Position numbers and translations under genes: made by a program. Below, piece by piece: positions 732 through 25,605 of a DNA stretch of 31,554 bases. The notes below the pieces were generated by a model, which saw only the letters and a list, made by a program, of their open reading frames with translations, did no database searches and was not told where the DNA came from. The stretch lies in UHGV virus genome UHGV-0071094; one strand, written 5' to 3'. The stretch's first letter is position 1. Each line of letters starts with the position of its first letter. Source of the stretch: a virus.

Positions 732-749
732 AATATTAGGTAAAATAGA

Positions 750-2357: not shown

Positions 2358-2517
2358 ATAAATTTTTCAATGCCAGAGACGTTTGCCAGTTCATGCAGAA
2401 AATCGCTTTTGTAAGTTACAGTCCATGTATCTTGGTTTAGAACAAAGTGGTGTCAAAAAAGGTTTATGCCTTGGGAGGGAATAAGGGGCTGGGAAATTTA
2501 ACCCCTTATAGAGTTGT

Positions 2518-2738: not shown

Positions 2739-2856
2739 TCCTTAAACCGTTCGAATAATTACGGCTTATACTGCCTACTTATGCTAATATCTAAGAGAAG
2801 CCATTGTGGTTGTGTAAGTATACTTCTTGGTTTATTTCGACTATAGAAAACCATAC

Positions 2857-6192: not shown

Positions 6193-6489
6193 GCACGAAA
6201 CCTCATGGATGATTCAATACAATGTAGATGATAAAATTGATCAATTTCTAACCAATTTCAACTGTTTTATCATTGATTAGAGCGAATTTAGTAAATCTTC
6301 GAGGTGTATGATAATCGAGAAGATATGTGAATTATGTAGCTGATATGACCAACAGCTTTCGGTATGTGGCCTCAAGTTACCCATCCGTAAATGGCTATGC
6401 TTAGTCAACATTTGTTAATATGTGTGATTATAATTCTTTAACTAAATCAAGATAGTTAACCCATCAGGGGAGAGTTATGCGGCAATAAC

Positions 6490-6955: not shown

Positions 6956-7377
6956 TCAATCAGTAGCCTTGTTTCTAACCGGATAGAAGCATTGTTTAGA
7001 GCAACTAGGAAGCGGGGGGATTACTGTTTCTGGTAAAGACTCTTTTGGTGGTGAACTGGACGCCTGGAATCAATATGAGAAAACTACTTAGTGCAACAGG
7101 AGCTGAATTAACTAATGGTGTAACATTACCTAGTGGTTGGCTTGTCAGTGGTATGAGCAAGGGAGCCAATAATCCTGAAAATTTAAGAGCGTTTGCTGTT
7201 TGTATGAGACAATGGCAGCATAAAAATTCTAGGATAAACTTTTGCCTTAATTAAAATGATAGGTGGTATATTTATAGGGGTTATCTTAGGAAGAATATTT
7301 TTAATGCTATTGATGAGAAGTATCGGACATGATTTAATGTTGTTTATGTTTTAGAATTCTCATATTCAGGCGGTTTC

Positions 7378-7743
7378 ATGATAAAACAGAAGTTAAAGAA
7401 TGACTGGGATATTCCTGCAATTCTTCGTCTTACTAAAGAACAAAAAAGGCTAAAATTGTCTGTTCAAGAAGTTGCAGACCTTCTGGACTTAAGCTCATAC
7501 TTTTTTGAGTTAGCTGTCGATGAGAAGGTGGATTTCAAATTTTATGACCTTCCTGAAAAGGTTAAAAAAAAGCTGCATTATGCAGGTTTTGATATTTTCT
7601 ATTTAATGACTGGTGAGTATTCAGGTAGTGAACCGGCATTGAAAATCGCCAGTTTTGAATATTCTATAAAGGATATGTCTCCTGAAGAAAAAAATGAAGT
7701 GAGAGTGTTGATAGAAAATATACCGATAACAAAACCACACTAA
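7378..7743 (+). CDS. Hypothetical 121-aa protein
   Basis: AT-rich ORF with no recognised domain; weak RBS; immediately upstream of a membrane protein gene. Confidence 0.4.
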   Translation: MIKQKLKNDWDIPAILRLTKEQKRLKLSVQEVADLLDLSSYFFELAVDEKVDFKFYDLPEKVKKKLHYAGFDIFYLMTGEYSGSEPALKIASFEYSIKDMSPEEKNEVRVLIENIPITKPH

Positions 7744-7812
7744 AATTACCTTTAATCCTATCATGTTATATTGGTAGGAAAAATTAGAACGTAATGATAT
7801 TGAGGTATAATC

Positions 7813-8436
7813 ATGGCCTTATCATCTGTAGCTATTGTGGCTGGTGTAGCTACTTTGGCAGCATCTCTTTTCAAAAATACAGAACTTCGGGTGATAGATA
7901 TCGTTGAGTTGTCAAAGCTCAGTGTTAACGATATTGAAAACAACCCTCAGTTAAAAATTGTCAAAAATGATATTAATGAACATATAACAGGCATTAAAGA
8001 CCCTGCATTTCATGAGGTTCTAATTGAAATTATGGCTAAGCATAATAAACCTGTTGGTTACTTCAAAAAAGTTGATGGTAGGTTGCAGTATGACCATTCC
8101 TATTATATTTCAATTAATAAGATGGGCTGGGGGCAATACATTAAAAAGTTAATTAATAATCCAAATGATTGGGTTGCAACTTTGATATATGTTATTTTTA
8201 TTATAACAATGTTCGGAATAGCAGTAGATCTTGATAAGGATCCACAAACATTTAATCAAGGTCTGTCTATATTTTTATCAGGTATGGGGGGATTAATGTT
8301 TAGCTTTTTATTAAAAGGCTTATCGGTTCAATGGAGAAATAGCTTTCATAATGTCAAGGATTTCGAATATAAAGAATTGTTTAAAGAGTACGCTAACAGT
8401 AAAATAGATGAAATCATATCATCAAACTCTAAATAA
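7813..8436 (+). CDS. Hypothetical membrane protein (207 aa)
   Basis: GAGG RBS 6-8 nt upstream; hydrophobic segments (ALSSVAIVAGVATLAASLF; WVATLIYVIFIITMFGIAV; LSIFLSGMGGLMFSFLL) suggest about 3 transmembrane helices. Confidence 0.5.
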   Translation: MALSSVAIVAGVATLAASLFKNTELRVIDIVELSKLSVNDIENNPQLKIVKNDINEHITGIKDPAFHEVLIEIMAKHNKPVGYFKKVDGRLQYDHSYYISINKMGWGQYIKKLINNPNDWVATLIYVIFIITMFGIAVDLDKDPQTFNQGLSIFLSGMGGLMFSFLLKGLSVQWRNSFHNVKDFEYKELFKEYANSKIDEIISSNSK

Positions 8437-8539
8437 TGATTCGGAATCATTTCTACCGTTGGCTGGGGTACATAAAAGCGTAATATTTTTATTCATTCTG
8501 ATAAAGCCAAGTCACATGGCTTGGCTTCAGATATATTGA

Positions 8540-8872
8540 TTAAGTATTATCTTTAATCGTTGTTGTTGTTCCGTTGGTTTTCACGGAAGCGATACCTTTT
8601 TCACGGGATTGTTTGGTCGAGTACATCTGGCTTGTACCGATCACATGATGATTAGCCGCCCGTAGGTTAAAATAGGACTTGCCGTTAGATGAGTCTTTCA
8701 GATCGTAGCGTTCATCAAGTGGGCTGTTTGCCTGAACTGATATAATGCCATTTTCTGCAGAACTCTTGGTTGTGTAAAGCTCGCTGGTGAGGATAATTTC
8801 TCCATTACCGGCTTTCAGAACAAATTTATACTGTTCATTACTGCTCTTATCCAATTCGAACCAACCAGCCAT
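8540..8872 (-). CDS. DUF1508 (YegP-like) tandem-repeat protein
   Basis: 110-aa ORF with two internal repeats (...YKFVLKAGNGEIILTSELYTTKSSAENGIISVQ / ...YFNLRAANHHVIGTSQMYSTKQSREKGIASVK) characteristic of the DUF1508/UPF0339 family. Confidence 0.65.
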   Translation of the reverse strand: MAGWFELDKSSNEQYKFVLKAGNGEIILTSELYTTKSSAENGIISVQANSPLDERYDLKDSSNGKSYFNLRAANHHVIGTSQMYSTKQSREKGIASVKTNGTTTTIKDNT

Positions 8873-9650
8873 ATTAACTCCTTGATAAAGTTGTGATTTT
8901 TACGGCCCAGTGATGAAGAACGAAGCGGGCAAGTTCAGTATGCCTGAAACAAAAATTGTTTCCAATATGTTATGTTTGTATCGGTAGCTGGGAACAAGAC
9001 TACACACTACGAAATGAGGCTTAGCTGTCGCCCACCAGTGTTGGCAGGTATGCCTTAGTGGGAGTCTTAGAGCGGAGGGTATCTTGAATCAATGTCTATT
9101 GCCATATTTACACGACACACGATATATTTTCTTTAGAGTCATATCTTAGGAAACAATAACGGCGACTTGAGCAAAAGTATCTAATATCAATAGATTTTCG
9201 TTAATTTAAAAAAATAGGTGCTCTCTCATAAAATCTGTAGGGTACTTGGTCGTGAATAAATTGCTGAGTTCATGTTGCGATGTCATTATTTGTCATCTTC
9301 CATGTCTCATAATTATCCTAACGTATAGGTTCAATGAAATTCCTTTATTCCTGTGTCTAATCTAATCAATCTAGCAATCTAACCAAACCTGTGTGTGGCG
9401 ATTTTACCTTGTTTAAATGTTCTAGGAATGCCTTTATCTTTTAGTATTAATTATATTAAAGGTTTACTTTCACGATGAGTATTTGCTGTTTCATCGGGAG
9501 GTTAAGATATTCATAATCTATCCTGACTGTAACGAAGATTAATCATTGATTTTATTTATATGTGAAAAAATCACTTTAAATATTGATTTTTTATGATTTA
9601 TGTAGTTTAATTTAAATGTATAGGTGATTTTTTCACATTGGAGAGGTGCT

Positions 9651-11009
9651 ATGTTAATCAGATTCTCAGTCGAAAACTACAAGTCATTCAGAGATAGAGT
9701 CGAGTTTTCAATGGTTTCGAGTAAAGTTCGAAGCCATCCATCACATGTCGTTAAGGCAACTTCTGCGAACGATATAAGTGTGTTAAAAGTTGGAGTTATC
9801 TATGGAGCTAATGCTTCTGGTAAATCCAACATCATCAAAGCAATGAAACATGCTCAAAATATGATTTTGAAAGGAAGTAAAGCTGGTACTAACCTTCCCT
9901 ATGCACCTTTCAGGCTTGATGATGATTTTGAAAAGAAACCCAGCAGATTTGAATTTGAAATTAAAATCAATGGCAAGAACTATGCATATGGATTCTCAGC
10001 TGATCAAAAATCCATTAAAGAAGAGTGGTTGTATGAAATAAACAAGAAGGATGACATTCTTATTTATGAAAGAAGTAATACAACTCACTTTAAATTTGAA
10101 AACATAAAATTTAAAAATGAAGAAGACGAACAATTCCTAAACTTTACAGCAAGAGGAACAAGCGAAAACTCTTTGTTTTTGTACGAATGTTTTGATAGGA
10201 ATGTTCTGAAGGATTTGAATTACATTGTACCAATTTCTGATGTTTTTAAATGGTTTAAAGCTAAGTTACAAATAGTTTTCCCGAATTCTAAATATAGAGA
10301 CCTAGATTTTGGATCTGCTTCTGATGAAAAAGAAGGAGAGCTTATAACTGATATTCTAAAAGATTTTGATACCGGTGTGTCAAAGTTAGTATTAAGAAAA
10401 GTTAGTTCATTTGATGATATAAAACTTCCTCCCAATTTCAAGGACCAGATCATAGAGGATCTTAAATCTAGTAAGGCTGTTGTAATTTCAGGGCCAAGAA
10501 ATAAACGATATAAAGTTGAACTGGGTGAAGATGGAGAAATAACGGTATTTCAATTGATGACGGCCCATAAAGATAAAAATGGTGATGATGTATATTTTGA
10601 ACTCAACCAGGAATCAGATGGTACACAAAGACTTTTTGATATTATACCTGGATTAGTCGAACTTATGTTGAAAGACAAAGTTTATATAATTGATGAAATT
10701 GATCGTAGTTTGCATCCAAAGATTACAAAAACATTTATGAAATTATTCTCTATGAAAACTGTCGGTAAAGACAGTCAACTGATAGTCACCACTCATGAAA
10801 CCGGTCTTTTAGATTTTGAACTTATACGAAGAGATGAGGTTTGGTTTACTGAAAAAAATAAAAGTGGAATTTCGAGAATTTATTCACTCGAAGAATTCCA
10901 GCCTAGGTTTGATAAAGATATACGTAAAGGTTACTTAGTGGGGCGTTTTGGTGGAATTCCTAAAATAAAGAATATATTATCAAACGTTGAAGATTTTCAG
11001 AAGGACTAA
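9651..11009 (+). CDS. ABC/SMC-like AAA ATPase (OLD/AbiLi-like ATPase component)
   Basis: Walker A GANASGKSN; Walker B-like VYIIDEIDRSLH; GGAGAGG RBS before the ATG at 9651 (ORF track start 9624 is less likely); stop 2 bp before the next gene. Confidence 0.7.
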   Translation: MLIRFSVENYKSFRDRVEFSMVSSKVRSHPSHVVKATSANDISVLKVGVIYGANASGKSNIIKAMKHAQNMILKGSKAGTNLPYAPFRLDDDFEKKPSRFEFEIKINGKNYAYGFSADQKSIKEEWLYEINKKDDILIYERSNTTHFKFENIKFKNEEDEQFLNFTARGTSENSLFLYECFDRNVLKDLNYIVPISDVFKWFKAKLQIVFPNSKYRDLDFGSASDEKEGELITDILKDFDTGVSKLVLRKVSSFDDIKLPPNFKDQIIEDLKSSKAVVISGPRNKRYKVELGEDGEITVFQLMTAHKDKNGDDVYFELNQESDGTQRLFDIIPGLVELMLKDKVYIIDEIDRSLHPKITKTFMKLFSMKTVGKDSQLIVTTHETGLLDFELIRRDEVWFTEKNKSGISRIYSLEEFQPRFDKDIRKGYLVGRFGGIPKIKNILSNVEDFQKD

Positions 11010-11011
11010 AA

Positions 11012-11668
11012 ATGCCTCGTGAAAGAAGAGAGTTTGACAGAAGAAGTGGGGTAAAAGACCCGTCTTTAATTGTAATTGCTTGTGAAGGAGAGAAAACAGA
11101 GCAGGACTATTTCAATAGTATATCGGAACTATGTGATGAGTTAGGATCACGTTTACAACTTAAAGTTCTCCCGCCGCGAGAAGAGGGGCATAGTGCGCCT
11201 AGACATGTTTTAGACCAAATGGATAAATATAAAAAAGAATTTGGAATTAAAGTGAATGATGAATTATGTCTGGTAATCGATAGGGATAAACAATCATGGA
11301 CAGAGGCTACTATAAGTGAAGTTGCTCAGTTTTGTCATGCCAAACAATATATTCTGGCTTTAAGTAATCCATGTTTTGAATTATGGCTTCTTATACACCA
11401 TTATGATGTAATGCTCCTCGGTGAGGATGAAAAAAGAAGTATTTTAAGAAATAAAAATGGGTATATGAAAAGCAAACTACGGGATGTTATTGGACAATAT
11501 AACCCAAGTTCTATTAATATTCATGATTTCTGGGGGGTAACTGAAATCGCGATTGACAGAGCTAAACGTTTAGATGTTAATCCAGCTGAGAGATGGCCTA
11601 ATGAAATAGGAAGTCGTGTGTATATAATCATGGAGAAAATACGTCAGTCAATTAATAATCAATTATAA
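11012..11668 (+). CDS. RloB-like / Toprim-domain protein (putative nuclease partner of the ATPase)
   Basis: 218-aa ORF; N-terminal IVIACEGEKTE and downstream LVIDRDKQ give a Toprim-like E...DxD signature; translationally coupled to the ATPase gene. Confidence 0.6.
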   Translation: MPRERREFDRRSGVKDPSLIVIACEGEKTEQDYFNSISELCDELGSRLQLKVLPPREEGHSAPRHVLDQMDKYKKEFGIKVNDELCLVIDRDKQSWTEATISEVAQFCHAKQYILALSNPCFELWLLIHHYDVMLLGEDEKRSILRNKNGYMKSKLRDVIGQYNPSSINIHDFWGVTEIAIDRAKRLDVNPAERWPNEIGSRVYIIMEKIRQSINNQL

Positions 11669-12082
11669 TTATCCTATGTATTCCTTCGCATTTATTCCAT
11701 GCTTTAATAAGTGTATAAGGTTTTAGCTAAGTTGATTTTTTTATTGACTTGGCTTTTTTGTGTCTGGTTTGATGGTCTAGTTATGAGTGTAGGTATTTTT
11801 CGATTAAAGCGTATATCTTGATTTTTATATTAAGAATCATTCCTGATTTCTACTGAAGCCAAGAGAAAATTATTAATATATTTCATAGGATGATTTTGAA
11901 TTAGGATCTAAACAATAAGATATGGTTCACGTAAATTTATTTTGCTGGAGTGATAACTCGATTGGGTGTTTATTGAGGGGGGGCAAAAATATTGGTTTGA
12001 CATTATTATTACTACCTTTTTTTGTTTCTTTGCTCAGTGTTTACGTTGCTTTTTAGCGTGCAAAAAATAGAGAACTATTATA

Positions 12083-13345
12083 CTAATTCATTTTCTTTAT
12101 TCTCTGGGCGAATTCAAACGGTGTAATGTGTTCTTTTCTGTTGGCATTAAGGTAGTCAGCCCACCATTGTAACATGAGTTTTCTCTCTTCGAGATGTTCC
12201 GCTTTGTGGATATATGCTGCCCGAACCGAGTTACGCTCTTGGTGGCTCATTTGACGTTCTACGGCGTCTCTTGACCATAACCCAGATTCGATTAATGCAC
12301 TACAAGCCATAGTTCGAAAACCGTGACCACAAACTTCAGCTTTCGTGTCGTAACCCATGGTGCGAAGAGCCTTGTTAACAGTGTTTTCGCTGATTGGTTT
12401 GTCATCGCGACTAAAACCAATGAACATAAGATCCTTTTCTCCACTTATAGCTTGGAGCCTTTTAAATAATACTACAGCCTGCTTACTTAGCGGCACAAGA
12501 TGAGGGGTTTTCATTTTTGAGCCCCTATTTGAATACTTAACCCCCTCCAATTCTCGTCTTTCTGCAGGGATTGTCCATAAGGAGTTTTTGAAATTCACCT
12601 CAGACCAACGAGCGAATCTAAGTTCACTTGAACGGATGAAAGTCAGTAGAGTTAATTGAACTGCTATTTGAGTGATACCTTTCCCTTTATAGGCATCAAT
12701 CCGTTTGAGAAGCTCAGGAAGTCGTTCGAGGGGAAGGGCAGGGCGGTGATTACTCTTGGCAGTGGTTACAGCGCCTGCGAGGTCGTAAGCTGGGTTTTGG
12801 TCAATCAAAGCATTGTGAACAGCATACCGCATGATGGCAGTGATTCTTTGTTGTAAACGGGCAGCAAGTTCAAGATGTCCAGTTTCCTCTGCTTTTTTCA
12901 GAGGAACAAGTAAATCACGAGTTTTAAGCTCACTAATGTTCCGCTTACCGATAACAGGAAATACATGAGTGATCAGGCTGTTTAATACGGTAGTTCTGTG
13001 ACTGTCTGACCAGGTTCTGTTGCTTGAGTGCCAGTCTCTGGCAACAGTTTCAAAAATGAGTAAGCCTTTCTCTTCAATCTTTTCTGTTTTTCGCTTTTCG
13101 CCAGGGTCAACATTGTTGGCAATGAGTTGCCTTGCTTCTTCTCTTCTACGACGAGCTTCTGCTAAAGACACTTCGGGATAAACACCAAGCGCCAACATTT
13201 TTTGCTTACCAGAAAAGCGATATTGAAGCCGCCAGTATTTTGAACCCGTAGGGTGAACCAGGAGATGCATACCATCCCCATCTGTTAACTTGACGGGCTT
13301 TTCAGTAGGTTTCGCATTTCTGACTTTTACCTCAGTTAGTGCCAT
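12083..13345 (-). CDS. P4/CP4-57-type tyrosine integrase (Arm-DNA-binding DUF4102 plus catalytic domain)
   Basis: 420-aa ORF; N-terminus MALTEVKVRNAKP...KLTDGDGMHLLV...GSKYWRLQYRF typical of the P4-like integrase arm-binding domain; C-terminal HGFRTMA...AAY...LMLQWWADYL catalytic motifs. Sits at the AT-rich/GC-normal boundary. Confidence 0.9.
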   Translation of the reverse strand: MALTEVKVRNAKPTEKPVKLTDGDGMHLLVHPTGSKYWRLQYRFSGKQKMLALGVYPEVSLAEARRRREEARQLIANNVDPGEKRKTEKIEEKGLLIFETVARDWHSSNRTWSDSHRTTVLNSLITHVFPVIGKRNISELKTRDLLVPLKKAEETGHLELAARLQQRITAIMRYAVHNALIDQNPAYDLAGAVTTAKSNHRPALPLERLPELLKRIDAYKGKGITQIAVQLTLLTFIRSSELRFARWSEVNFKNSLWTIPAERRELEGVKYSNRGSKMKTPHLVPLSKQAVVLFKRLQAISGEKDLMFIGFSRDDKPISENTVNKALRTMGYDTKAEVCGHGFRTMACSALIESGLWSRDAVERQMSHQERNSVRAAYIHKAEHLEERKLMLQWWADYLNANRKEHITPFEFAQRIKKMN

Positions 13346-14222: not shown

Positions 14223-14951
14223 TCATTCACCATCCTGCTGCGGTGCTGCTGGCAGTGGCATCCAGTGGGTAATACTACCTGGATATAAACTCTTTGCTGG
14301 CCCCCAGTAGCCATCTGTATTAACACGCATAACCTCACAGCCATCAAAACCATCAGTTACAAGAACGTATTCATAAGGTTCCGGCATCCTTTCGCTTACC
14401 GGAATCCAACTATCCGGAGTTCCCGGAGAGTTGCCATTTACATCGAAGTTTGGCTCTGCGTCCTGAACCAGGAGGATGTAACCATTCTTGGCTGTATCAA
14501 GTTCTAACGCCTCGGTGACGGTGCCGAAATAGCGATTGCCTAAATCAGCATCACAAGTGCTTACATCAATGGAAACTTCCATGCCCTCGATTAATTCTGG
14601 CAAGTTGTAAGTTTGGCTTACAGGTTCGGCTTCCAGTTCTGCTATGCGCTTTTTTGCTGCTTCCAGCTCGCCAAGCAGCGCCAAGACGGTAGCCGGATTG
14701 GCTGCGGCGATGAATTCAGCATTGGCCTGCTGTTCCATTTGGAAATCTTCATCGAAACCGCTTTCAGGATGCGCTCCTTCAATTCTGCAAATGGGAATAT
14801 ATCCAGCAGCCTCGCGATGAATTAGCGCATCATCACAATCAAATCGGCTCTCTCCATATTCGAGCGACCACTCACCACACGTTGCTTTTTCTGCCGCTTC
14901 ACGCAGTGCCTGGTAATTAATTTCGCTCACTGTTTGCCTCCTTTGCGCCAC
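14223..14951 (-). CDS. Ead/Ea22-like protein with C-terminal DUF551 domain
   Basis: 242-aa ORF; C-terminal ...[35 protein letters not shown]...THWMPLP resembles DUF551; typical lambdoid early-left accessory gene. Confidence 0.7.
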
Positions 14952-15550
14952 ATCGCATTCAGATATTTGTTGTCATTAACAGAACCGAAACTCTTTCTTT
15001 TAAGCAATTCCTCTCTCGATGGCATTGGCTTTACGCGTTGGCGAATAATCATTTCTGCCGGAAGAATGCCGGGATTGTATGCAAGTCCTCTCATGGTAAA
15101 TTCCTCAGTCATTACTGATAGCGCCATAGCGTGAGCGGTAATTACGCAGGCGCGGGTCAATTTCAGGGAAGTGGGTATATCTGCATCTTTCGCATCATCA
15201 ATGCCGAACAAACCATTGAGGCAATACTTGCGTGCATAAGAGCTTGTAGCTCCAGTAACTTGTGCAGAATCCATTCCTTTCTTGCTTTCTTCCTCTCGTG
15301 CAAGAGCGGTTGCCGTATGACTGTTTTCGCCATCGGTAATAGTTGCCGTGGCTTTCACATAATACCGATCACCAATCAACACAACTTCATCGCTGATTGA
15401 TAAAAACAGGCCATTCAGTAGCGGCTTAACGCCTTCAAGAATATCTTCGCAGCTTCTGTATTTATATTTACCGAATGAGTTGTACTGATTTTTTGGCGCG
15501 TTCAGATTCTCCTGAATGGCAGCCAGTCTTGCGTAAAATTCTTTGCTCAT
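14927..15550 (-). CDS. erf: ERF-family single-strand annealing protein (P22 Erf-like)
   Basis: Translation from the internal Met ([45 protein letters not shown]...) closely resembles phage P22 Erf as I recall it; the ORF-track start 15580 probably over-extends. Confidence 0.8.
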
Positions 15551-15651
15551 ATGATTGTTCTCAGAATGGACATGGCCCAAGGAAATAACGCTGATTTAAT
15601 ACTTCGACTCGGGACAAGTTAAGGCATACCCGCATTCCTTCGCGGTCACCA

Positions 15652-15810
15652 TTATGGCGATACCAGAGAGCTTTCTGCGTGTACATGCGTCTCTGTAACT
15701 TGCTCTCCTTCACTGTGGTTGCAAGTGACATGAATATCTCCTTCGTTACCGATTAATTCTTTCATCTGACGAATGAATTCTTCGTCTGACCAGTTATCTG
15801 TAAAACTCAT
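15652..15810 (-). CDS. Small phage protein (52 aa) in the Arf/early-left position
   Basis: Minus-strand ORF MSFTDNWSDEEFIRQMKELIGNEGDIHVTCNHSEGEQVTETHVHAESSLVSP; its ATG overlaps the stop of the upstream small gene (ATGA). Confidence 0.4.
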   Translation of the reverse strand: MSFTDNWSDEEFIRQMKELIGNEGDIHVTCNHSEGEQVTETHVHAESSLVSP

Positions 15811-15959
15811 TTCCTGCGATACCATGGAAGGTTGATAGCTAATTTCATCTCTTTATTTGCTTCAAGCCACATTTTGGAATCACCAATAAATCTGGCTATT
15901 ACTGCTTTGTTTTGTGCTGCTCGAAGCATCTGGTGATTGATGGCTATTTCATTGCGCAT
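15807..15959 (-). CDS. Kil-like small protein (50 aa)
   Basis: Minus-strand ORF MRNEIAINHQMLRAAQNKAVIARFIGDSKMWLEANKEMKLAINLPWYRRK; the ...RFIGDSKMW... segment resembles lambdoid Kil as recalled; assignment tentative. Confidence 0.35.
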   Translation of the reverse strand: MRNEIAINHQMLRAAQNKAVIARFIGDSKMWLEANKEMKLAINLPWYRRK

Positions 15960-16078
15960 AACGCCTCCAGTTGTTTCTTTGCTGCTCTGATTAATTGTTT
16001 AACTCGGCGTGATAATTCAGATTCGTGCGGGTAGAAAGCGGACATGACGCCGCTACCCGCGAGCTGAAAGTGCATCAT
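15944..16078 (-). CDS. cIII-like small protein (44 aa)
   Basis: Internal start of ORF 15944..16183 gives MMHFQLAGSGVMSAFYPHESELSRRVKQLIRAAKKQLEALCAMK, resembling lambda CIII (..AG....ESxL.R....L); AAGGAG RBS upstream. Confidence 0.4.
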   Translation of the reverse strand: MMHFQLAGSGVMSAFYPHESELSRRVKQLIRAAKKQLEALCAMK

Positions 16079-16619
16079 GGGTAACTCCTTATATTTGATT
16101 GCATAACGAAAACGCCTCGAGTGAAGCGTTATTGGTATGCGGTAAAGCCGATGGAAGAATGGTTTCTTCTCGCAGGTAAGCATGATGCTTGCTGTTCTGG
16201 AATACGGAATCGAAGACGATGAAATGGCTGAATTGACTAAGCGGCTTGCCGATTACCTGACAAAAGAAAAAGCCCCGAAGAACGGCGAATTCTTCGAGGC
16301 CTGATGTAGAAAGACTGGATCAATCCACAGGAGTAATTATGACAAAACGTCGTAAGAAATACCAGGAAAAAGAAGAGATTCGACACCCTGATTCACCTGA
16401 GGGATTAGTGGTAGCCGCAGCAAATAACAGGGCGTTCGCAGAGCGCCTTGTTGGTGTTTACAGACTAGCCAAAGCAGGAGTGAAACATGGGCGTCGTTAA
16501 GTTAGCTGATTACAGGCATATCCAAACCGTATGCCTGTTGGTAGTGGTAACCAGTTGGCGAAGTGGAACGGTTGGAATTACTTCCACCGAAAGGAACCTT
16601 GCGATAACGGGAGCGAATA

Positions 16620-18038
16620 ATGCCGATTCAGCAACTTCCGCTTATGAAAGGTGTCGGCAAAGACTTTCGAAACGCCGACTATATCGACTATCTGCCAGTG
16701 AATATGTTGGCTACACCCAAAGAAATACTCAACAGCAGCGGATATCTTCGTTCATTCCCGGGCATTGCCAAACGCTCTGATGTGAACGGTGCATCTCGCG
16801 GCGTCGAGTACAACATGGCGCAGAATGCTGTTTATCGTGTGTGTGGTGGCAAGCTGTACAAAGGAGAAAGTGAAGTCGGTGACGTTGCCGGAAGTGGTCG
16901 TGTATCAATGGCGCATGGTCGGACATCACAGGCAGTAGGCGTTAATGGTCAACTGGTCGAGTATCGCTATGATGGCACGGTTAAAACCGTCTCAAACTGG
17001 CCTACAGACAGCGGATTCACGCAGTATGAGTTAGGTTCAGTCCGCGACATTACGCGCTTACGTGGGCGTTATGCGTGGTCAAAAGACGGCACTGATTCAT
17101 GGTTTATCACTGACCTTGAAGACGAATCGCATCCTGACCGCTACAGCGCACAATATCGTGCTGAGTCTCAGCCTGACGGCATCATCGGCATCGGAACATG
17201 GCGAGACTTCATCGTCTGCTTTGGTTCATCGACGATTGAATATTTCTCCCTGACTGGCGCAACAACTGTTGGTGCTGCTTTGTATGTCGCACAGCCATCA
17301 CTGATGGTGCAGAAAGGCATTGCCGGAACTTACTGCAAAACGCCATTCGCTGATTCGTATGCGTTTATCAGCAATCCGGCAACGGGTGCGCCGTCTGTAT
17401 ACATCATCGGATCCGGTCAGGTGTCACCAATCGCCAGCGCGAGCATTGAGAAAATTCTCCGCTCCTACACTGCTGATGAACTGGCTGATGGTGTGATGGA
17501 GTCTCTGCGATTTGATGCGCATGAGCTGCTGATTATCCATCTTCCGCGCCATGTTCTGGTGTACGACGCATCTTCAAGCGCCAATGGTCCGCAATGGTGT
17601 GTACTGAAAACAGGCCTGTATGACGATGTGTATCGCGCTATCGACTTCATTTACGAAGGCAATCAGATAACGTGCGGCGATAAGCTGGAATCCGTGACCG
17701 GGAAATTGCAATTCGATATCAGCAGCCAGTACGACAAGCAACAGGAACATCTGCTGTTTACTCCACTCTTCAAAGCAGATAACGCCAGAGTTTTCGACCT
17801 TGAGGTTGAATCGTCAACTGGCGTTGCGCAGTACGCTGACCGCCTGTTCCTCTCTGCAACCACTGACGGCATCAATTACGGGCGTGAGCAGATGATTGAG
17901 CAGAATGAACCGTTCGTTTACGACAAACGCGTTTTGTGGAAGAAAGTAGGGCGCATCAGGAAAAACATTGGCTTCAAATTGCGCGTTATCACTAAGTCAC
18001 CTGTCACTCTGTCTGGCTGCCAGATAAGGATTGAGTAA
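16620..18038 (+). CDS. P22 gp10-like tail/head-completion protein
   Basis: 472-aa ORF; same length as P22 gp10 and N-terminus [46 protein letters not shown] closely resembles it. Confidence 0.85.
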
Positions 18039-18886
18039 TGGCTGATTCGAATCTTAATGTGCCGGTAATCATTCAGGCTACACGACTCGACACATCAGTC
18101 CTTCCGCGTAATATCTTCTCGCAGTCGTATCTGCTTTACGTTATCGCACAGGGAACTGATGTTGGTAACGTGGCTAACAAAGCCAACGAGGCCGGACAGG
18201 GCGCTTATGATGCACAGGTCAGGAACGATGAGCAGGATGTGATTCTCGCTGACCATGAGCAGCGAATTTCTGCTGCGGAAGCAACGCTTGTTAATCATGA
18301 GGAGCGAATCAGCCAGGCAGAATCAACTCTTCAGGAACATGAAACGCGAATCGCTCAGAATGAAAGCGATATTGCGTCGCTTGATACCAGAGTTCAGTCG
18401 CTGGAATCGCAGGTTTCAGACCATGAATCGCGCATTGATGCTCTGGAGTATGCCACTACTCGCAAGAAGTCAGAGGTTGTTTACTCTGGCGTATCAGTAA
18501 CCATTCCGACAGCGCCGACCAACCTTGTTAGCCTGCTGAAAACGCTCACGCCGTCATCAGGATCGTTGGCACCATTCTTCGACACCGTTAACAACAAGAT
18601 GGTTGTGTTCAACGAGAACAAAACCTTGTTCTTCAAGCTGTCGATCGTCGGGACGTGGCCCAGCGGAACCGCCAACAGGTCAATGCAGCTAACATTTTCC
18701 GGTTCTGTTCCTGACACACTGGTAAGCAGTCGCAACTCGGCGACAACAACCGACAACATCCTGTTAGCTACGTTCTTCAGCGTGGATAAAGACGGCTTTC
18801 TTGCCACAAATGGCAGTACGTTAACCATTCAGTCAAATGGTGCGGCGTTTACTGCCACAACCATCAAGATAATCGCGGAGCAGTGA
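18038..18886 (+). CDS. Tail needle protein (gp26-like) with C-terminal knob, Sf6-type
   Basis: ATG overlaps the gp10 stop (TAATG); N-terminus [36 protein letters not shown] conserved with P22 gp26; heptad-like coiled-coil middle; 282 aa with a ~130-aa C-terminal extension, as in Sf6-type needles. Confidence 0.8.
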
Positions 18887-19341
18887 TGATTCAGTTCAAA
18901 CAAACGCGAAACATCGACCTGATCGAAGCAGTCGGAAATCACCCTGACATTATCGCCGGTAGCAACAACGGTGATGGATACGACTACAAGCCTGAATGCC
19001 GTTACTTTGAGGTTAACGTGCACGGTCAGTTTGGCGGCATTGTTTACTATCAGGAAATTCAGCCGCTTACATTCGATTGCCACGCCATGTACCTGCCAGA
19101 GGTTCGCGGCTTCAGCAAGGAAATCGGGATGGCGTTCTGGCAATACATTCTGACTAACACCACCGTTCAGTGCGTCACATCGTTCGCCGCACGCAAATTC
19201 CGCCACGGGCAGATTTACTGCGCAATGATTGGCCTTAAGCGTGTCGGAACCATCAAGAAATACTTCAAAGGCGTGGATGACGTGACTTTTTACAGCGCCA
19301 CACGCGAAGAACTAATCGACTTCCTGAATCACGGGAGATAG
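18883..19341 (+). CDS. P22 gp14-like virion assembly protein
   Basis: 152-aa ORF in the conserved position between the needle and gp7 genes; overlapping start/stop. Confidence 0.65.
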
Positions 19342-19343
19342 CC

Positions 19344-20036
19344 ATGTTATATGCATTTAAGCTGGGCAGAAAACTGCGCGGCGAGGAACCTTGGTGCCCT
19401 GAAAAAGGCGGGAAAGGTGGTAGCTCTGATAAAAGCGCAAAGTATGCAGCAGAAGCCCAGAAGTATGCCGCAGACCTGCAAAATCAGCAGTGGCAGACGA
19501 TCATGAAAAACCTTGCTCCGTTCACGCCTCTTGCGGAGCAGTATGTTAACCAGCTTCAGAACCTTTCCAGTTTAGAAGGTCAGGGGCAGGCACTTAATCA
19601 GTATTACAACTCTCAGCAGTATAAAGACCTTGCAGGTCAGGCTCGTTACCAGAGTCTTGCTGCTGCGGAGGCTACGGGAGGACTTGGTTCGACAGCCACA
19701 AGCAATCAACTGGCTACGATCGCGCCGACTCTCGGTCAGTCGTGGTTATCAAACCAGATGAGCAATTACAACAATCTGGCAAACGTTGGGCTTGGTGCTC
19801 TGCAAGGTCAGGCAAACGCCGGGCAGACGTACGCCAACAACATGAGCAGCATTGCACAGCAAAGCGCAGCTCTTGCCGCTGCTAATGCCAACAAACCATC
19901 AAGTCTTCAGACAGCAATTAGTGGCGGAACGTCTGGTGCGATTGCCGGTGCAGGTCTTGCCAGCCTTTTGGGAACATCAACACCTTGGGGCGCTGGCATT
20001 GGTGCTGGTATCGGATTGCTTGGCTCGTTGTTTTAA
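19344..20036 (+). CDS. Ejection protein, P22 gp7-like
   Basis: 230-aa ORF, Gln/Ala/Gly-rich with a glycine-rich hydrophobic C-terminus; gene order and size match P22 gene 7. Confidence 0.75.
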   Translation: MLYAFKLGRKLRGEEPWCPEKGGKGGSSDKSAKYAAEAQKYAADLQNQQWQTIMKNLAPFTPLAEQYVNQLQNLSSLEGQGQALNQYYNSQQYKDLAGQARYQSLAAAEATGGLGSTATSNQLATIAPTLGQSWLSNQMSNYNNLANVGLGALQGQANAGQTYANNMSSIAQQSAALAAANANKPSSLQTAISGGTSGAIAGAGLASLLGTSTPWGAGIGAGIGLLGSLF

Positions 20037-20045
20037 GGGGTAATC

Positions 20046-21452
20046 ATGGCTACTTGGCAAGGATCAAATGGCGGATTGTTGGCTGGTATCGGCGGCGTCA
20101 ACTCAAACGCTCCGAGCGTAAATGACATCGGCAACACGCTTCAGCTTATCAGGCAGAACAATGATATTGAGCGTTCAGGCGCTAACAATGTTGGGCTGAC
20201 AGCTTTGCAAGGTCTTTCTGGTATTGCGGGTGTTTTTCAGCAGGAAAAGCAGGCTCAGCGGCAGAAAGAATTTCAGCAGGCATACGCTAATGCTTATGCG
20301 TCTGGTGATCGCGGTGCTTTGCGTCAGTTGGCTACTCAATATCCAGACCAGATTGAATCTGTTCGTAAAGGCATGGGATTCATTGATGAAGACCAGCGCA
20401 ATTCTATCGGCACCTTAGCGGCTGGCGCCCGCCTTGCATCATCGTCTCCAGAAGCAATGCAATCATGGCTGCAAAACAACGCCAAGGAACTGACTCGCGT
20501 CGGTGTTGACCCTAATAACGTTGCTCAGATGTATCAGCAGAACCCTTCAGGATTTGGTGAGTTTGTTGATCACCTTGGAATGGCTGCTCTTGGTCCGATT
20601 GATTACTTCAATGTTCAGGACAAGATGGCTGGTCGTGAGATTGATCGCGGAAAACTTGCAGAGACAATCCGCAGCAATCAGGCTGGAGAAGCACTTCAGG
20701 CGAGAGGGCAAAACCTTTCCTATCAGTCAGCAATGACTGGGCACAATATCGCAGCACAACGCTTGGCTCTGGATCAGCAAGAGTTCGGGTTTAAGATGCA
20801 GCAAGCGCAGGAAAAGGCTCAGCAGTTGATTAGCGAAGCACCTAAGCTGTCAGTAAACATGGAAAAAGGCATCGAGACGGCTGTAAACAATGCTACAGCA
20901 TCATCAAACTCAGCCAATTCTATGAGTGCGCTTGCTCAACAGTTCAGAGCAGAAAAACCAACGACAGGTTTGTTCGGTAACGCACAGAACATGTTCGCAA
21001 AACTTACCGGAAGCGATACAACATTGCGTGATTTGCGCATCCGCCAAAATGCCCTTGTTAACAGTCAGGTTCTTAAATTCCTACCTCCAGGCCCCGCAAC
21101 GGATAAAGACGTTGAGATCGTTCGGCAGGGGGCACCAACTGACATGGATAACCCTGAGACGGTCGCAAGATGGCTTGATGCAATGGCAAACCTTGAGCGA
21201 CGAAACGCGCAGTTTAATGAGTTTAAAGCCGAGTGGATGAGCGCGAATGGCAATCCAGGACAATCGCGTAATGGCGGTCAGATATTGGGGTTGGATGTTA
21301 AAAAAGGTGAATCATTGGGGAGTGCCGTTAAGCGGTATATGTCAATGAATACTGACGCAGCGCCAGCACAAGATTCGACACCTTCAGGAGAACCACGGAA
21401 TCAGGTTGGATCATATACCTCAAAATCAGGCATTCAATTTACGGTGGAATGA
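20046..21452 (+). CDS. Ejection protein, P22 gp20-like
   Basis: 468-aa ORF in conserved synteny (7-20-16); compositional similarity to P22 gp20. Confidence 0.75.
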
Positions 21453-23290
21453 TGAAAGTAACTGCAAACGGTAAGACATTTACCTTTCCTGATGGTACGA
21501 GCACCGAAGATATTGGCAACGCCATTGATGAGTATTATGCTGGTCAGGCTGTTCAGCAACAAACAGTTAATCAGGCCAATAATGCACCAACACGGGAAGA
21601 ACCATCATTGATCCAACAAGCTGGCGATTGGCTCACTGGTGGTCAAAGTGCAGGGCAAATTGCAGAACAGGCTGGTCGTGGTCTGGTAAACATACCATTT
21701 GACGTATTGCAGGGCGGCGCAAGTCTGATTAATGCAATCAGTCAGGGGCTTGGTGGACCCAAGGTTTTGGATGATGTTTATCGTCCAGTAGACAGACCGA
21801 CAGACCCCTACGCGCAAGCCGGTGAAACAATTGGTGGGTATTTAGTTCCAGGAGTTGGAACGGCAGGAAGCATGGCTATTGGATCACTGGCAGAGGCCGC
21901 AAATCAGAAAGGCGATTTCGCACAAAATGCAGCTAAAAATGCCGGAGTTAACCTTGCCACTCAGGGTGTTCTTTCCGCAGCAGCAAAGGGAATAGGGCGT
22001 GGAATAACGGCTATAAAAGGTGATATTGCGCCAGAAGTGGCGAAGAAAATTGCCACATCAGAATCGATGGGCGTGACACCAATGACATCTGATGTTATCC
22101 CGCCGAAAAATGCTTTCACTCGCGGCCTAACTCAGGATGCCGAGGGGGCTTTGCTCGGGACAGGCTCAAAGCGAGCGGAGCAATATGCAACGCGTAGTAA
22201 GCTGGTAAGTAATTATTTTGACCGTTTTGGTGAGTACAACCCTGATGATGTGGTGAAATCTCTTACCACCACGTTAAGGGGGCGGAAGGATGCCGCTGGC
22301 GCTGTTATCAATGACGTCACCAATAAAATGGGTAATGCCGCAGTTGATACCACAAATACCATGAATGCTCTGAATACAGCGATCGCAAGACAGGAACGGC
22401 TTGGGACGTCTGCCAATCAAAGCCTGCTTACATCCTTGCGTAACCTACGTGAAGAATTAGCAAACCCTGCAACTGATTTGGATGTTACGTTTGATCTCTT
22501 GCGTCAGCACAGAACAGCATTTAGATCTAATGTTCAGGGAGATGCTATGGTCTTCCCCAACCAGGCAAAAGCAGCTACCAATATGGTAGAGAATGCAATG
22601 TCAAAAGACCTTCGTAACGCAGTTGCTAAAAACCTCGGTGCATCAGACGCAGCAAAATACCTTAAAGCAAATTCCGATTATGCAAACGTTTATAATAAGG
22701 TGCTTAATAAAAACATTGCTAACAAGCTCAACAAGGCAAGCAGTGAAGCCAGTCCTGAACTTATAAATACCGTTGTATTAAGCAGAAAACCATCTGACGT
22801 GAAACGAATATGGAGCGCCCTGGATGATAAAGGGAAAGATGCTATGCGTGCAGCTTACGTCAGCAAAATAGCGGAAAAGGCCGGTGACTCTCCAGCCAAG
22901 TTCATCACTGAAGTTAATAAGCTGAAATCTCAGTCAGGCGGTGAAATTTACAACACTATTTTTTCTGGAAAGCACATGAAAGAGCTTGATGCTCTTCATG
23001 AAGTTCTACAGCAAACAGCAAGGTCAGACACCGCAAATGTAGTAACTCAGACGGGGCAATCACAAGCCAACAGGATAAGGACGATTGGCGCAACTGCGAC
23101 TCTTGGTGTATCAATGGGGCTTGAGGCTGGCTTTGGTGCAATGATGCGTTTGTATGAGTCCAAAGCAGCAAGGAATGCTCTCTTACGTCTGGCAAACACT
23201 AAAGCTGGAACGCCAGCCTATGAAAGAGCGTTGAGTAACGCTGCAAATGCCATCAGGCCGCTGCTTGCTACTGAGGCAACACAGCAGTAA
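21449..23290 (+). CDS. Ejection protein, P22 gp16-like
   Basis: 613-aa ORF; N-terminus [16 protein letters not shown] and size fit P22 gp16; overlaps the gp20 stop. Confidence 0.75.
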
Positions 23291-23314
23291 CGTATGGGGA
23301 ATTGGATTCAATCG

Positions 23315-23704
23315 TTAACATTTTCTTTTTACTTTTCCAACAAAAGCTTTGGTTGAATCCATATTCCCATAACCAGAAATGGTTTTCGACATTAAAACTG
23401 TTCCATTAGGATGTATTACCCATGAGTCGATAACTCGTTGAGTTTCGCCATTCGCGCCGATTCCAATGATGGAGTTTTTAGACAATGCTTTGTAAGCCAT
23501 GCCGCCCGCATCCGTCCCAGAATATGTGATACTGGCATCTTCACCGTTTGTCTTAATGATGAATGTTCCACTAAAACCATCTTCTTCCGGTTGAAAATTA
23601 TTTCGTTCTGAATAGCTTATTCCGTGCATATCTCCAACGACCCAGCACTCTGCTGAGACAGAAAACGAGAAGACAAGGAAAGCCATTGCTATAATCAATT
23701 TCAT
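23315..23704 (-). CDS. Hypothetical secreted protein (129 aa), moron in the sieA position
   Basis: N-terminal signal peptide MKLIIAMAFLVFSFSVSA; no recognised domain; same strand as and downstream of mnt. Confidence 0.55.
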   Translation of the reverse strand: MKLIIAMAFLVFSFSVSAECWVVGDMHGISYSERNNFQPEEDGFSGTFIIKTNGEDASITYSGTDAGGMAYKALSKNSIIGIGANGETQRVIDSWVIHPNGTVLMSKTISGYGNMDSTKAFVGKVKRKC

Positions 23705-23719
23705 TTTAAGCCCTTATTG

Positions 23720-24055
23720 TTATTGATTCTTTTTGCACGGAAATGTTTTTCCTACTGCTAGGGCGGTTAGTATAACTGCACTCTCATTTCTTGATTCTGG
23801 GTTTTTGTTTAGATATTTCTCAACGATATCGGTGTATTGATACATGTCAACGCCATCAGGAGGACATAGAGAACCAATTAGTATCAATGAGTCAGTTACT
23901 CCGCGCAAATATCCAGTAATGTAAAGCGATGAAAAATCATCACCCTTTTTACCTTGTTGAATGTTGTAAAGAAGGTCATTACCCGTTTGAAGCTCGCGCA
24001 GCTCAGCACTGGAAGAAGAGACAACTGCTAACAAGAACAGTGATAGAAATCTCAT
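23720..24055 (-). CDS. Hypothetical secreted protein (111 aa), moron co-transcribed with mnt
   Basis: Signal peptide MRFLSLFLLAVVSSSSA; two Cys (possible disulfide); start overlaps the mnt stop. Confidence 0.55.
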   Translation of the reverse strand: MRFLSLFLLAVVSSSSAELRELQTGNDLLYNIQQGKKGDDFSSLYITGYLRGVTDSLILIGSLCPPDGVDMYQYTDIVEKYLNKNPESRNESAVILTALAVGKTFPCKKNQ

Positions 24056-24306
24056 TTCAAATCCTTTTCATAAATCTTTTTAAGTGTCTCAAACACTATA
24101 GCCTTGAACTGCTCAGCCTGCTGATCAGCCAAGCGTTCAGCTTCGTCGCGATATCCTGTAATCGGTGATGGTTTTGATAGTGCATCCTGAACGATTTGTA
24201 ATAACTCAGAGTTCATTGACCTTCCGTTAGCCTCGGCTCTTAATTTCAATTTTTCTCTTACTTCCAAAGGCATACGGAAGTTAAAGTGCGGATCATCTCT
24301 AGCCAT
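24052..24306 (-). CDS. mnt: Mnt repressor (Arc/MetJ ribbon-helix-helix family)
   Basis: 84-aa ORF MARDDPHFNFRMP.EVREKLK.RAEANGRSMNSELLQIVQDALSKPSP.TGYR closely resembles P22 Mnt; divergent from arc, with operators between. Confidence 0.85.
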   Translation of the reverse strand: MARDDPHFNFRMPLEVREKLKLRAEANGRSMNSELLQIVQDALSKPSPITGYRDEAERLADQQAEQFKAIVFETLKKIYEKDLK

Positions 24307-24328
24307 GCCATCACTCCAAGTTAGTGTA

Positions 24329-24380
24329 TTGACATGATAGAAGCACTCTACTATATTCTCAATAGGTCCACCGTGGACCT
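24329..24380. promoter_or_regulatory. immI control region: Pant-like promoter with Arc operator and Mnt operator
   Basis: TTGACA (24329-24334) and TATATT (24352-24357) with 17-bp spacing; the 21-bp ATGATAGAAGCACTCTACTAT (24334-24354) matches the P22 arc operator as recalled; the 17-bp palindrome AGGTCCACCGTGGACCT (24364-24380) matches the Mnt operator. Confidence 0.7.
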
Positions 24381-24396
24381 ATATTGTGAGGTGAAC

Positions 24397-24558
24397 ATGA
24401 AAGGAATGAGCAAAATGCCACAGTTCAATTTGCGGTGGCCTAAAGAAGTATTGGATTTGGTACGCAAGGTGGCGGAAGAAAATGGTCGGTCTGTTAATTC
24501 TGAGATTTATCAGCGAGTAATGGAAAGCTTTAAGAAGGAAGGGCGCATTGGTGCGTAA
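24397..24558 (+). CDS. arc: Arc repressor
   Basis: Internal start of ORF 24334..24558 gives a 53-aa protein MKGMSKMPQFNLRWP.EVLDLVRKVAEENGRSVNSEIYQRVMESFKKEGRIGA resembling P22 Arc; GAGGTGA RBS. Confidence 0.85.
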   Translation: MKGMSKMPQFNLRWPKEVLDLVRKVAEENGRSVNSEIYQRVMESFKKEGRIGA

Positions 24559-24626
24559 AGTTGAAGCCCCAACTGCTGTAACAGTCAGGGCTTCGGCATC
24601 AACAAATCGGATTAGGAAATATTGAC

Positions 24627-25505
24627 ATGAAAAGTATAGCAAAGGCACAAAACGATTTCACCATCTTCAAATTCGGCGACAGTGAAATCCGCGTCATCAA
24701 CAAGTGCGGTGAGCCGTGGTTTGTAGCTAAAGATGTTTGTGATGCTTTAGATTTGACTAACTCACGCAAGGCGCTTACTGCACTTGATGACGATGAAAAG
24801 GGAGTAACTTTAAGTTACACCCTTGGTGGTGAGCAGAATCTAAGCATTGTGAGCGAATCAGGTATGTATACATTGGTTCTGCGCTGCCGCGATGCAGTCA
24901 ATAAAGGTTCAGTCCCGCACAAATTCCGCAAGTGGGTAACAGCAGAAGTTCTGCCTTCAATTCGCAAACATGGCGAGTATGTAAAAGGAAAGAAAACCAC
25001 TGTTGAGGAAAGAACACCGCTACGCGATGCAGTAAACATGCTGGTAGGAAAGAAAGGACTTCGCTATGACGATGCATACAATATGGTTCATCAGCGTTTT
25101 GGTATTGACAGCATTGATGAACTTTCAATTGAACAAATCCCGCTGGCCGTAGAGTACATCCACAGGGTAGTGCTTGAAGGTGAGTTCATTGGCAAACAAG
25201 AGAAGAAAACCAACGAGCTTTCTGCAAAAGAAGCAAACAGCCTTGTATGGTTATGGGATTATGCCAACCGCTCACAGGCATTATTCCGCGAACTGTATCC
25301 GGCGCTAAAACAAATTCAATCGAACTATTCCGGCAGATGCTACGACTACGGTCATGAATTCTCGTATGTTATCGGAATGGCGAGAGACGTTTTAATAAAC
25401 CACACACGAGATGTTGATATTAATGAGCCAGACGGACCAACGAATCTTTCCGCATGGATGAGACTTAAGAATAAAGAATTGCCTCATTCAGTACATAACT
25501 ACTGA
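24627..25505 (+). CDS. ant: Antirepressor Ant (Bro-N plus Ant C-terminal domain)
   Basis: 292-aa ORF downstream of arc; N-terminal ...[28 protein letters not shown]... is Bro-N/KilA-N-like; position and size as P22 ant. Confidence 0.8.
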
Positions 25506-25521
25506 CAGATAACCAACGCAA

Positions 25522-25548
25522 CGACCCAGCTTCGGCTGGGTTTTTTTA
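25522..25548 (+). terminator. Rho-independent terminator after ant
   Basis: ACCCAGC-TTCG-GCTGGGT hairpin followed by TTTTTTTAT. Confidence 0.55.
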
Positions 25549-25605
25549 TGCCCAAAATTCACCGTAGCTACGCTGCGGCGATTCCTTGTATCTGGAGCAA
25601 ATTAA

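Follow-up and report, generated by a model that had tools for sequence, protein, structure and literature searches.

The interval directly upstream of gene 10 in this 31,554-nt window (by which we mean the whole stretch of DNA that was analysed) is a composite scar in a decayed P22-like prophage; the object itself is of a known kind, the product of ordinary prophage decay. In the reading that we favor, at a probability of about 0.8, two microhomology deletions left a 375-bp relic between them, and the right-hand deletion ended at a recurrent breakpoint within gp4 that would mark a putative position-specific lesion. The features on which this reading is built, from left to right, are as follows.

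15178-15183: third scar, an 854-bp deletion with a 6-nt alignment overlap; the N-terminal part of erf is fused to a 3' remnant of abc2 and the DUF2737 gene
15944-16078, minus strand: cIII (44 aa), the last intact early-left gene ahead of the scar
16079-16144, minus strand: conserved leader ahead of cIII that closes the early-left block, with homology to HK106 and F719
16145-16150: junction A, with an AAGCCG overlap, placed by base-by-base alignment to loci L004, L003, and L001
16146-16304, plus strand: 3' fragment of cII, codons 42-93 and the stop, a relic 99.7% identical to L001
16182-16304, plus strand: 40-aa ORF, the in-frame C-terminal tail of CII
16270-16302, minus strand: predicted terminator-like hairpin, antisense to the 3' end of cII
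16339-16500, plus strand: intact 53-aa gene of family phrog_1331, with AGGAG at 16328-16332
16487-16520, plus strand: start of an O/gene-18-like replication initiator, 34 nt (11 codons), identical to L001 2846-2879
16487-16780: 97-aa ORF, which opens with the start of O, then runs in the wrong frame across the gp4 fragment and into gp10
16510-16617: 36-codon open frame, whose TAA (16618-16620) overlaps the gp10 ATG at 16620
16519-16520: junction B, with a TA overlap, where an O parent is joined to a gp4 parent
16519-16620, plus strand: gp4 remnant, the last 33 codons (YPNRMPVGSGNQLAKWNGWNYFHRKEPCDNGSE) and the stop, 102 nt, 97.4% identical to L002 2001-2102
16620-18038, plus strand: gp10, intact, 472 aa, the first gene of the kept tail/ejection block

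Similarity searches resolved the region into three homology blocks of different origin. The first (window 15400 to 16140/16150) is 97 to 98% identical to the erf-kil-cIII early-left region of HK106 and of E. coli F719; homology in the leader extends to 16140 in HK106 and to 16150 in F719, and cIII itself aligned to the HK106 CIII coding sequence (L003 3045-3179), with profile matches to phrog_550 and Pfam Lambda_CIII. The second block (16145-16523) is 99.7% identical to intact prophages, such as that of E. coli A3019 (L001 2504-2882), where the 3' portion of cII is followed by a small annotated gene and then by the beginning of a replication gene. The third, from 16519 onward, matches the final 102 nt of gp4 and then gp10 at 97% identity (L002). 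The 375-bp relic between junctions A and B comprises the last 52 codons of cII, the 53-aa gene, and the first 34 nt of O.

A preliminary description of this DNA had proposed that a deletion junction lies in the interval. A junction is indeed present, but it is not the single one envisaged, since two (16145-16150 and 16519-16520) part the three blocks. The reading frames on which that proposal drew, a 40-codon ORF ending at 16304, a 53-aa ORF at 16339-16500 with an AGGAG site, and a 36-codon frame overlapping the gp10 ATG, were all found where it had placed them, as was cIII, directly upstream on the opposite strand (15944-16078, minus). Its premise that P22-like phages carry a gp4 of about 150 to 170 aa ahead of gp10 agrees with the 166-aa gp4 of intact relatives (L002), and gp4 is fragmentary here, as it had supposed, being reduced to its last 33 codons at 16519-16620. 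No intact or divergent gp4 homologue was recovered from the interval, which holds only the last 102 nt of the gene.

The short frames are neither scar debris nor noise: each is a recognisable piece of a known gene (the C terminus of CII, an intact phrog_1331 gene, and the true start of O). The cII relic, for which the reference coding sequence is L001 2382-2663, matches phrog_191 at positions 41-101 of 106 and also Pfam Phage_CII. Full-length CII (about 93 to 97 aa, with an N-terminal DNA-binding half) is absent, and codons 1-41 are deleted relative to L001. The hairpin at 16270-16302 occupies what we take to be the position of the lambda oop terminator; it had no match in Rfam. The O/18-like gene, annotated in L001 as 2846-3736, has its true start at the ATG at 16487, and the 97-aa ORF that opens there (16487-16780) is spurious.

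The 53-aa ORF matched phrog_1331 over its full length (1-53/53, E = 1.4e-37). ST104, Sf6, mEpX2, HK544, and many E. coli prophages have members of this family annotated as coding sequences between cII and O, and this interval (the position of Sf6 gene 42), not the stretch ahead of gene 10, is the family's usual place. The case that would have refuted the earlier description, genuine small genes conserved at this very position in complete phages, does not arise with phrog_1331, because the gene is conserved but between cII and O and is displaced here. Judged from its sequence, the ORF is an intact conserved small gene that has been moved into an apparently promoter-less context. A scan of 15800-16800 for sigma-70-like promoters found none; the same stretch contains two predicted terminator-like hairpins, both on the minus strand, the one at 16270-16302 and another at 16111-16130, within the cIII leader.

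At junction A, AAGCCG is common to both parents, and 10 nt are shared if one gap is allowed (GGTAAAGCCG versus GGTAAGCCG). The junction joins the intergenic stretch between cIII and DUF2528 (the ea10 position) to cII codon 41/42. Deletion A thereby removed the region upstream of cIII as far as cII codon 41, about 3 kb or more; judged from relatives, the genes lost were DUF2528 and ral (L004) and N, the repressor gene, and cro (L001), with pL and pR lost as well. At junction B, base-by-base alignment places TA in both the O parent (GGCATAACC) and the gp4 parent (GGTTATCC). Measured on phage IME10, from 34 nt into O (start at 9313) to the gp4 site at 26351, deletion B spans 17.0 kb; it took O from codon 12, replication, nin, Q, lysis, terminase, portal, scaffold, coat, and gp4 codons 1-133. 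The third scar is defined by the alignment of window 14946-15183 to L003 1187-1424 and of 15178-16140 to L003 2279-3241, and the ORF across it (14927-15580) bears both ERF and DUF2737 domains. A further 13 junctions with known parents, from related loci, share 2 to 7 nt and no longer homology. Short microhomology without longer homology, at junctions A and B, at the third scar, and at these 13, marks them as products of illegitimate recombination.

Junctions A and B might both stem from one complex event, in which serial template switching copied the 375-bp relic between jumps. A short colinear segment between two microhomology junctions is the classic footprint of that process, and the searches turned up no relative that carries one junction without the other; junction A in its exact form was seen elsewhere only in the same element (L127, below). 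A single event is nonetheless unlikely in our judgment. Locus L076 carries a lone O'|gp4' junction together with an intact lambda-type immunity region, which means that B-type deletions occur alone, and the presence of several unrelated scars, among them the third one in this window and several in locus L024, favors stepwise decay.

The prophage as a whole begins at about 13.4 kb and takes up the rest of the window to its right end, some 18 kb, versus 38 to 40 kb in complete relatives; the left 13 kb of the window is a separate island with its own integrase. The prophage DNA is 94 to 97% identical to HK620, Sf6, and IME10. Genes kept are gp10, 26, 14, 7, 20, and 16, immI with its sar RNA, the tailspike gene, gtrCBA, and intS. 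ORFs within 16620-27567 gave Pfam matches to Phage_stabilise, Phage_tail_NK, DUF2824, P22_gp7, Inj_translocase, and P22_gp16, the Arc/Mnt and P22AR domains of immI are present, and the sar RNA was detected; the order gp10-gp26-gp14-gp7-gp20-gp16, immI (mnt/arc/ant), tailspike is the synteny of P22-like (Lederbergvirus-type) phages. An immunity region, replication, lysis, terminase, portal, scaffold, and coat genes, and an intact gp4, were all absent from the window. In these respects the element is like the defective lambdoid and P22-like prophages known from E. coli and Shigella (CPS-53/KpLE1 at argW, Rac, and DLP12, for example), which are likewise remnants with an IntS-type integrase, gtr, and scattered phage genes and have lost immunity, replication, lysis, and head genes by internal deletions. 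Unlike them, it retains an uninterrupted block from gp10 to the tailspike gene plus immI with sar RNA, and its scars, including the displaced intact small gene, are legible at single-base resolution. The element was recovered with both of its junctions from IMG/VR contig 3300028995_000073 (L127; 99.95% identity) and from human-gut metagenome ERR525885 (L128/L129). The double scar was absent among 5,426 complete E. coli genomes and from GTDB representative genomes and JGI metagenome contigs.

The right end of deletion B is not a random one and is shared far more widely. The best E. coli match across both flanks, F719, has a ral fragment joined to gp4 at the identical base. An exact-pattern scan of IMG/VR with the 25 nt to the right of the gp4 site gave 120 loci, and 123 could be scored when earlier loci were included. 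Upstream gp4 homology stops 1 to 2 nt from the site in 4 of the 123, three of them distinct junction types, and no other homology end was seen in the next 456 nt upstream across these loci. The next discontinuity, 457 to 472 nt away, is an ordinary allelic boundary. We also considered whether the gp4 site itself is a boundary of the allele mosaic and rejected this, as the boundary lies at that upstream position and in the sole gp4 hybrid, P0064, the switch is near residue 100.

A peptide search with the C terminus of gp4 returned four short chimeric ORFs with different N-terminal parts, each fused exactly at Tyr134, and sampled complete E. coli genomes contributed four further junction types. 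Independent deletion types that keep the gp10 side number at least 12, as found with pattern and protein searches that were anchored on the gp4 site and are blind to deletions ending elsewhere; all have the form X|TATCC at GGT|TATCC, Tyr134. The partner X is O (two nonhomologous alleles), ral, portal (two positions), TerL, TerS (three positions), sequence from the portal/scaffold region, a DUF2560 gene, or an early-left spacer. All of these deletions are colinear and range from 1.4 to about 21 kb in size. For nine of them, X was traced to its undeleted parent, and in 9/9 of these parents TA stands at the crossover (overlaps TA, TTA, TA, GTTATCC, TAT, TA, TTA, TA, and TA).

The site is also the endpoint of deletions that keep the 5' side of gp4. 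When gp4 residues 1-133 were used as the query, the top near-identical proteins of odd length diverged exactly after Gly133 or Tyr134. At least five such types were found, running rightward from the site into gp10 or gp16:

L136: overlap GTTA
L138: overlap ATC
L139-141: overlap TATC
P0013: overlap TAT
P0009: join at CGG(T), adjoining the last six codons of gp10

In addition, the P0012 allele has a 1-nt deletion exactly at the site. A gp4 breakpoint elsewhere was met only once, in P0105. The crossovers of both classes all fall inside GTTATCC, 7 nt, and the two classes overlap by TA to TATC.

The coincidence of breakpoints might in principle reflect descent from one ancient deleted prophage, or a bias of the search. 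The pattern and peptide searches were anchored on the gp4 site, and the frequent recombination of P22-like prophages could have scrambled the flanks of a single ancestral deletion. The right flanks of the junction loci are 94 to 95% identical to one another, and the nearest intact locus to each is about 96% identical; each junction locus is thus closer to some intact prophage than to the others, so that the right flanks do not form a clade. The 102-nt gp4 tails of these loci belong to alleles that intact prophages commonly carry too. More tellingly, 17 different partner sequences abut the gp4 site directly, and each such junction needs an illegitimate event of its own, a pattern that shared descent cannot explain. 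As to bias, F719 was found without anchoring on the site, and the upstream scan, itself unbiased, met no other endpoint within 456 nt. Among complete E. coli genomes, 231 records carry this gp4 allele, of which 219 continue unbroken through the site and 12 are partial; all of the partial records inspected (5/5: F719, ETEC4067, CUVET19-2242, GPEC1240, and XH2172) begin exactly at the gp4 site, at the same base, with five different partners. Shared descent or bias is therefore very improbable indeed as the source of the pattern. Homologous exchange is frequent in P22-like prophages and could blur a shared ancestry of the right flanks, which counts against our reading. The P22 allele of gp4, which has CCTTACCCATCACG at the homologous position, gave no junctions in IMG/VR, a result that is uninformative, as intact copies of that allele there were uncounted. 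Full-text literature searches returned no description of the gp4 breakpoint.

What the recurrent junctions have in common suggests how they form. The class of mechanism that we consider most likely is a site-specific break or stalled end followed by microhomology annealing. A lesion specific to GGT|TATC|C, which may be a staggered break or a 3' end that has stalled or been released, would arise at the stem/loop edge of a small hairpin, CGGTT-ATCCA-AACCG, and the exposed end would terminate in TA or TATC. This end could then anneal to 2 to 7 nt of microhomology elsewhere in the prophage and be sealed or extended, by alternative end-joining or by microhomology-mediated break-induced replication. 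The overlap of the two product classes, TA/TATC, fits a staggered double-strand break or 3' ends released at a fixed point, from which we infer the nature of the lesion. The gp4 site does lie at the 5' stem/loop edge of the hairpin, for which -4.1 kcal/mol was predicted in a 36-nt segment, with 0 of 200 shuffles folding as well; in 91 nt of context, the hairpin is unexceptional. A 5-bp hairpin is weak and of a common kind, which counts against a role for it.

Breakpoints that are base-precise, run in both directions, and have many partners resemble, by analogy, the hotspots known at nick sites and at IS ends, here without the element that defines those systems. Michel and Ehrlich reportedly described, in 1986, illegitimate deletions with a fixed endpoint at the replication nick sites of M13/fd and pC194. 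As there, one endpoint is constant to the nucleotide, the partners are many, and the homology at the joint is very short. The fixed end in M13/fd and pC194 is the Rep/gpII nick site of a rolling-circle origin, whereas the deletions at the gp4 site run both ways, and we know of no origin or nickase in gp4. Kusumoto et al. are said to have reported, in 2011, deletions of this shape in EHEC, promoted by the IS-excision enhancer, IEE, upon excision of IS629. These too are anchored at an exact position, vary in extent on one side, and are joined by microhomology; unlike the present case, they require an IS at the anchor, and no IS-occupied gp4 allele was found here.

An IS could still have been the agent: an IS of the IS3 family, with a 3- to 4-bp duplication, or a TA-duplicating MITE might insert at TAT(C), and transposase-dependent excision of the IEE type would take one flank with it. 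One endpoint would then be fixed and the other variable, in both directions, and both product classes retain TA/TAT(C), as a target duplication would predict; IS elements are also frequent in these remnants (L136; IS1 in L054). We nevertheless regard an IS or MITE as distinctly improbable. A left-anchored pattern search of IMG/VR yielded only SNP variants and no occupied allele, and in a set of 5.8 billion protein clusters, none of the seven near-identical N-terminal gp4 variants of odd length read into an IS (0/7); five enter phage genes at the site, one has a frameshift there, and one diverges at the gp4 C terminus. The sampled E. coli matches across the gp4 site were all in a single piece, and no IS was present at junction A or B. 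Because the right flanks come from different alleles, an IS would also have had to insert at one position many times independently.

Other recombination units were examined as well. The end of a transposon-like or invertible unit, or an integrase/att deletion, was rejected, as the site occurs once in the window even with mismatches, has no flanking repeats, and meets 17 varying partners. Among gix/hix, dif/cer, the integron core, MOBQ/MOBP nic, Chi, Ter, and type IIS/III restriction sites, we know of none that fits the crossover, as compared by eye.

A strong topoisomerase cleavage site would supply a break of the right geometry, resolved by subunit exchange or by collapse of the complex. The 4-nt TATC overlap equals the 4-bp stagger of a type II enzyme (gyrase or Topo IV), and the top strand, CGGT|T, has C at -4, the base preferred there by type IA topoisomerases such as Topo I. 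Gyrase is an established source of illegitimate-recombination hotspots in lambda. The gyrase motif, on the other hand, is long and degenerate and lacks a short consensus; quinolone-type sites favor G after the scissile bond, where T stands here; and 9/9 partners have TA, although subunit exchange does not require microhomology. A topoisomerase is, on this evidence, improbable as the agent. Gyrase sites can be mapped at single-nucleotide resolution (PMC6379681).

Cleavage of GGT|TATC|C by a sequence-specific endonuclease of the homing type (HNH, GIY-YIG, or LAGLIDADG), encoded by a related phage or a co-resident element, is possible but doubtful. With no donor template in the resident prophage, such a cut would be repaired by microhomology joining, with loss of one flank. 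The nucleotide precision in both directions is what an endonuclease would give, an overlap of 2 to 4 nt (TA/TATC) suits a staggered cut, and the 1-nt deletion of P0012 falls exactly at the site. Free-standing homing endonucleases of the T4 Seg/Mob type nick DNA or cut it with a stagger at specific sites, no more than a few hundred bp from the genes that encode them. Free-standing NUMOD4+HNH_3 cassettes, of three types, were found in about 9 of 130 related loci, directly after gp10 or inside its 5' end and accompanied by recoded gp10 segments; the gp4-gp10-gp26 module is thereby a homing arena, with recoded coding sequence next to the nuclease gene. WP_000947776 is one of these HNH endonucleases. 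The link to the gp4 site is circumstantial. The carriers keep the gp4 site unaltered, and the recoded, presumably protected segments are the 3' end of gp10 or gp10 codons 1-31, not gp4. No cassette was found beside the gp4 site, nor any recoded gp4 3' end linked to a cassette. We had considered HNH co-conversion tracts and recoding as a pointer to the gp4 site and rejected them, as they point to gp10. A variable ORF between coat and gp4, read by eye, gave no sign of a nuclease in its sequence.

A site-specific break or stalled end with microhomology annealing thus remains our preferred mechanism, whichever agent acts. We suggest, tentatively and at somewhat less than even odds, a further step: that gp4 contains a fragile site (GGT|TATC|C, Tyr134), cut or nicked by a putative sequence-specific activity, which would give P22-like prophages of E. 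coli a major and repeatable path to inactivation. The agent, under this suggestion, could be a homing-type nuclease from a competing phage, a nuclease of the host or of a defence system, or a topoisomerase.

For annotation, the cII fragment, the O start, and the gp4 tail are best treated as pseudogene pieces, and the 53-aa gene as a displaced intact gene. The domestication of prophages is usually seen as erosion that strikes at random and is then sifted by selection; here, every inspected truncation of this gp4 allele, in independent lineages, falls at a single base-precise position. If gp4 does harbor a fragile site, about 5% of the copies in complete genomes would already have been truncated there, and the site could expose a new pairing of nuclease and target, a weapon of phage against phage, or a naturally strong site of topoisomerase action or replication stalling.

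Comparison with phage HK106 identified a third internal deletion scar in the window, which lies within a minus-strand reading frame:

15178-15183: deletion scar, 854 bp absent relative to HK106
14927-15580, minus strand: scarred ORF, 217 aa

Because of this deletion, the ORF is a fusion in which an N-terminal ERF domain is followed by the 3' remnant of abc2 and the DUF2737 gene. A further feature of the region is a strong terminator-like hairpin antisense to the 3' end of cII, at the position of the lambda oop terminator; a search of Rfam gave no family match for it.

16270-16302, minus strand: hairpin of 14 pairs, followed by a T-run

Scarred remnants were also observed in related P22-like prophages. 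In L147 (E. coli GPEC1240; 2501-2611), the last 102 nt of gp4 are left as an isolated island, bounded on the left by the usual junction at the recurrent gene 4 breakpoint (DUF2560'|TATCC) and on the right by a second junction just 9 nt inside gp10. L024 (4786-7533) is one more remnant with multiple scars: a C-terminal fragment of a DnaB-like helicase adjoins a C-terminal fragment of terminase, and a chimeric ORF of 530 aa links the first ~497 aa of the portal protein, in frame, with the 33-aa gp4 tail.

Related prophages additionally carry free-standing homing-endonuclease genes (NUMOD4+HNH_3+HTH) of three sequence types:

L142, 4543-5076
L066 and L086, +242 to +826 from the gene 4 breakpoint
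L122, L040, L046, L045, L055, and L054, after gp10 (in L054, the endonuclease gene is interrupted by IS1)

Types A and B are directly preceded by the gp10 3' end in recoded form. Type C is located within the gp10 5' end, with a relic of gp10 codons 1-31 upstream of the insertion and a recoded copy, brought by the cassette, downstream.

The left part of the window, 1-13345, is a genomic island of its own, outside the P22-like remnant. It encodes:

an HxsA-like His-Xaa-Ser repeat protein
a TIGR04141 protein
two ParB-like proteins
a large serine recombinase, 518 aa
an integrase fragment
12083-13345: P4-type integrase, 420 aa

An AbiL-like abortive-infection gene pair was also found in the island (9624-11668), comprising AbiLi (AAA_15/21 ATPase, E = 3e-91) and AbiLii (RloB-like, E = 3e-23). 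The P4-type integrase adjoins the early-left end of the prophage, which suggests tandem integration of island and prophage at one att site. The window contains no tRNA genes.

Further to the right in the prophage, the following were identified:

23315-23704: phrog_2651 gene, adjoining the next ORF
23720-24055, minus strand: ORF with a Rap1a immunity-protein domain, between gp16 and mnt
24559-24625, minus strand: intact sar antisense RNA (Rfam RF00262, 65.6 bits)

Rap1a is a type VI effector immunity family. The immI region (mnt/arc/ant), within which the sar RNA lies, is complete; the prophage has kept this secondary immunity module despite deletion of the primary one.
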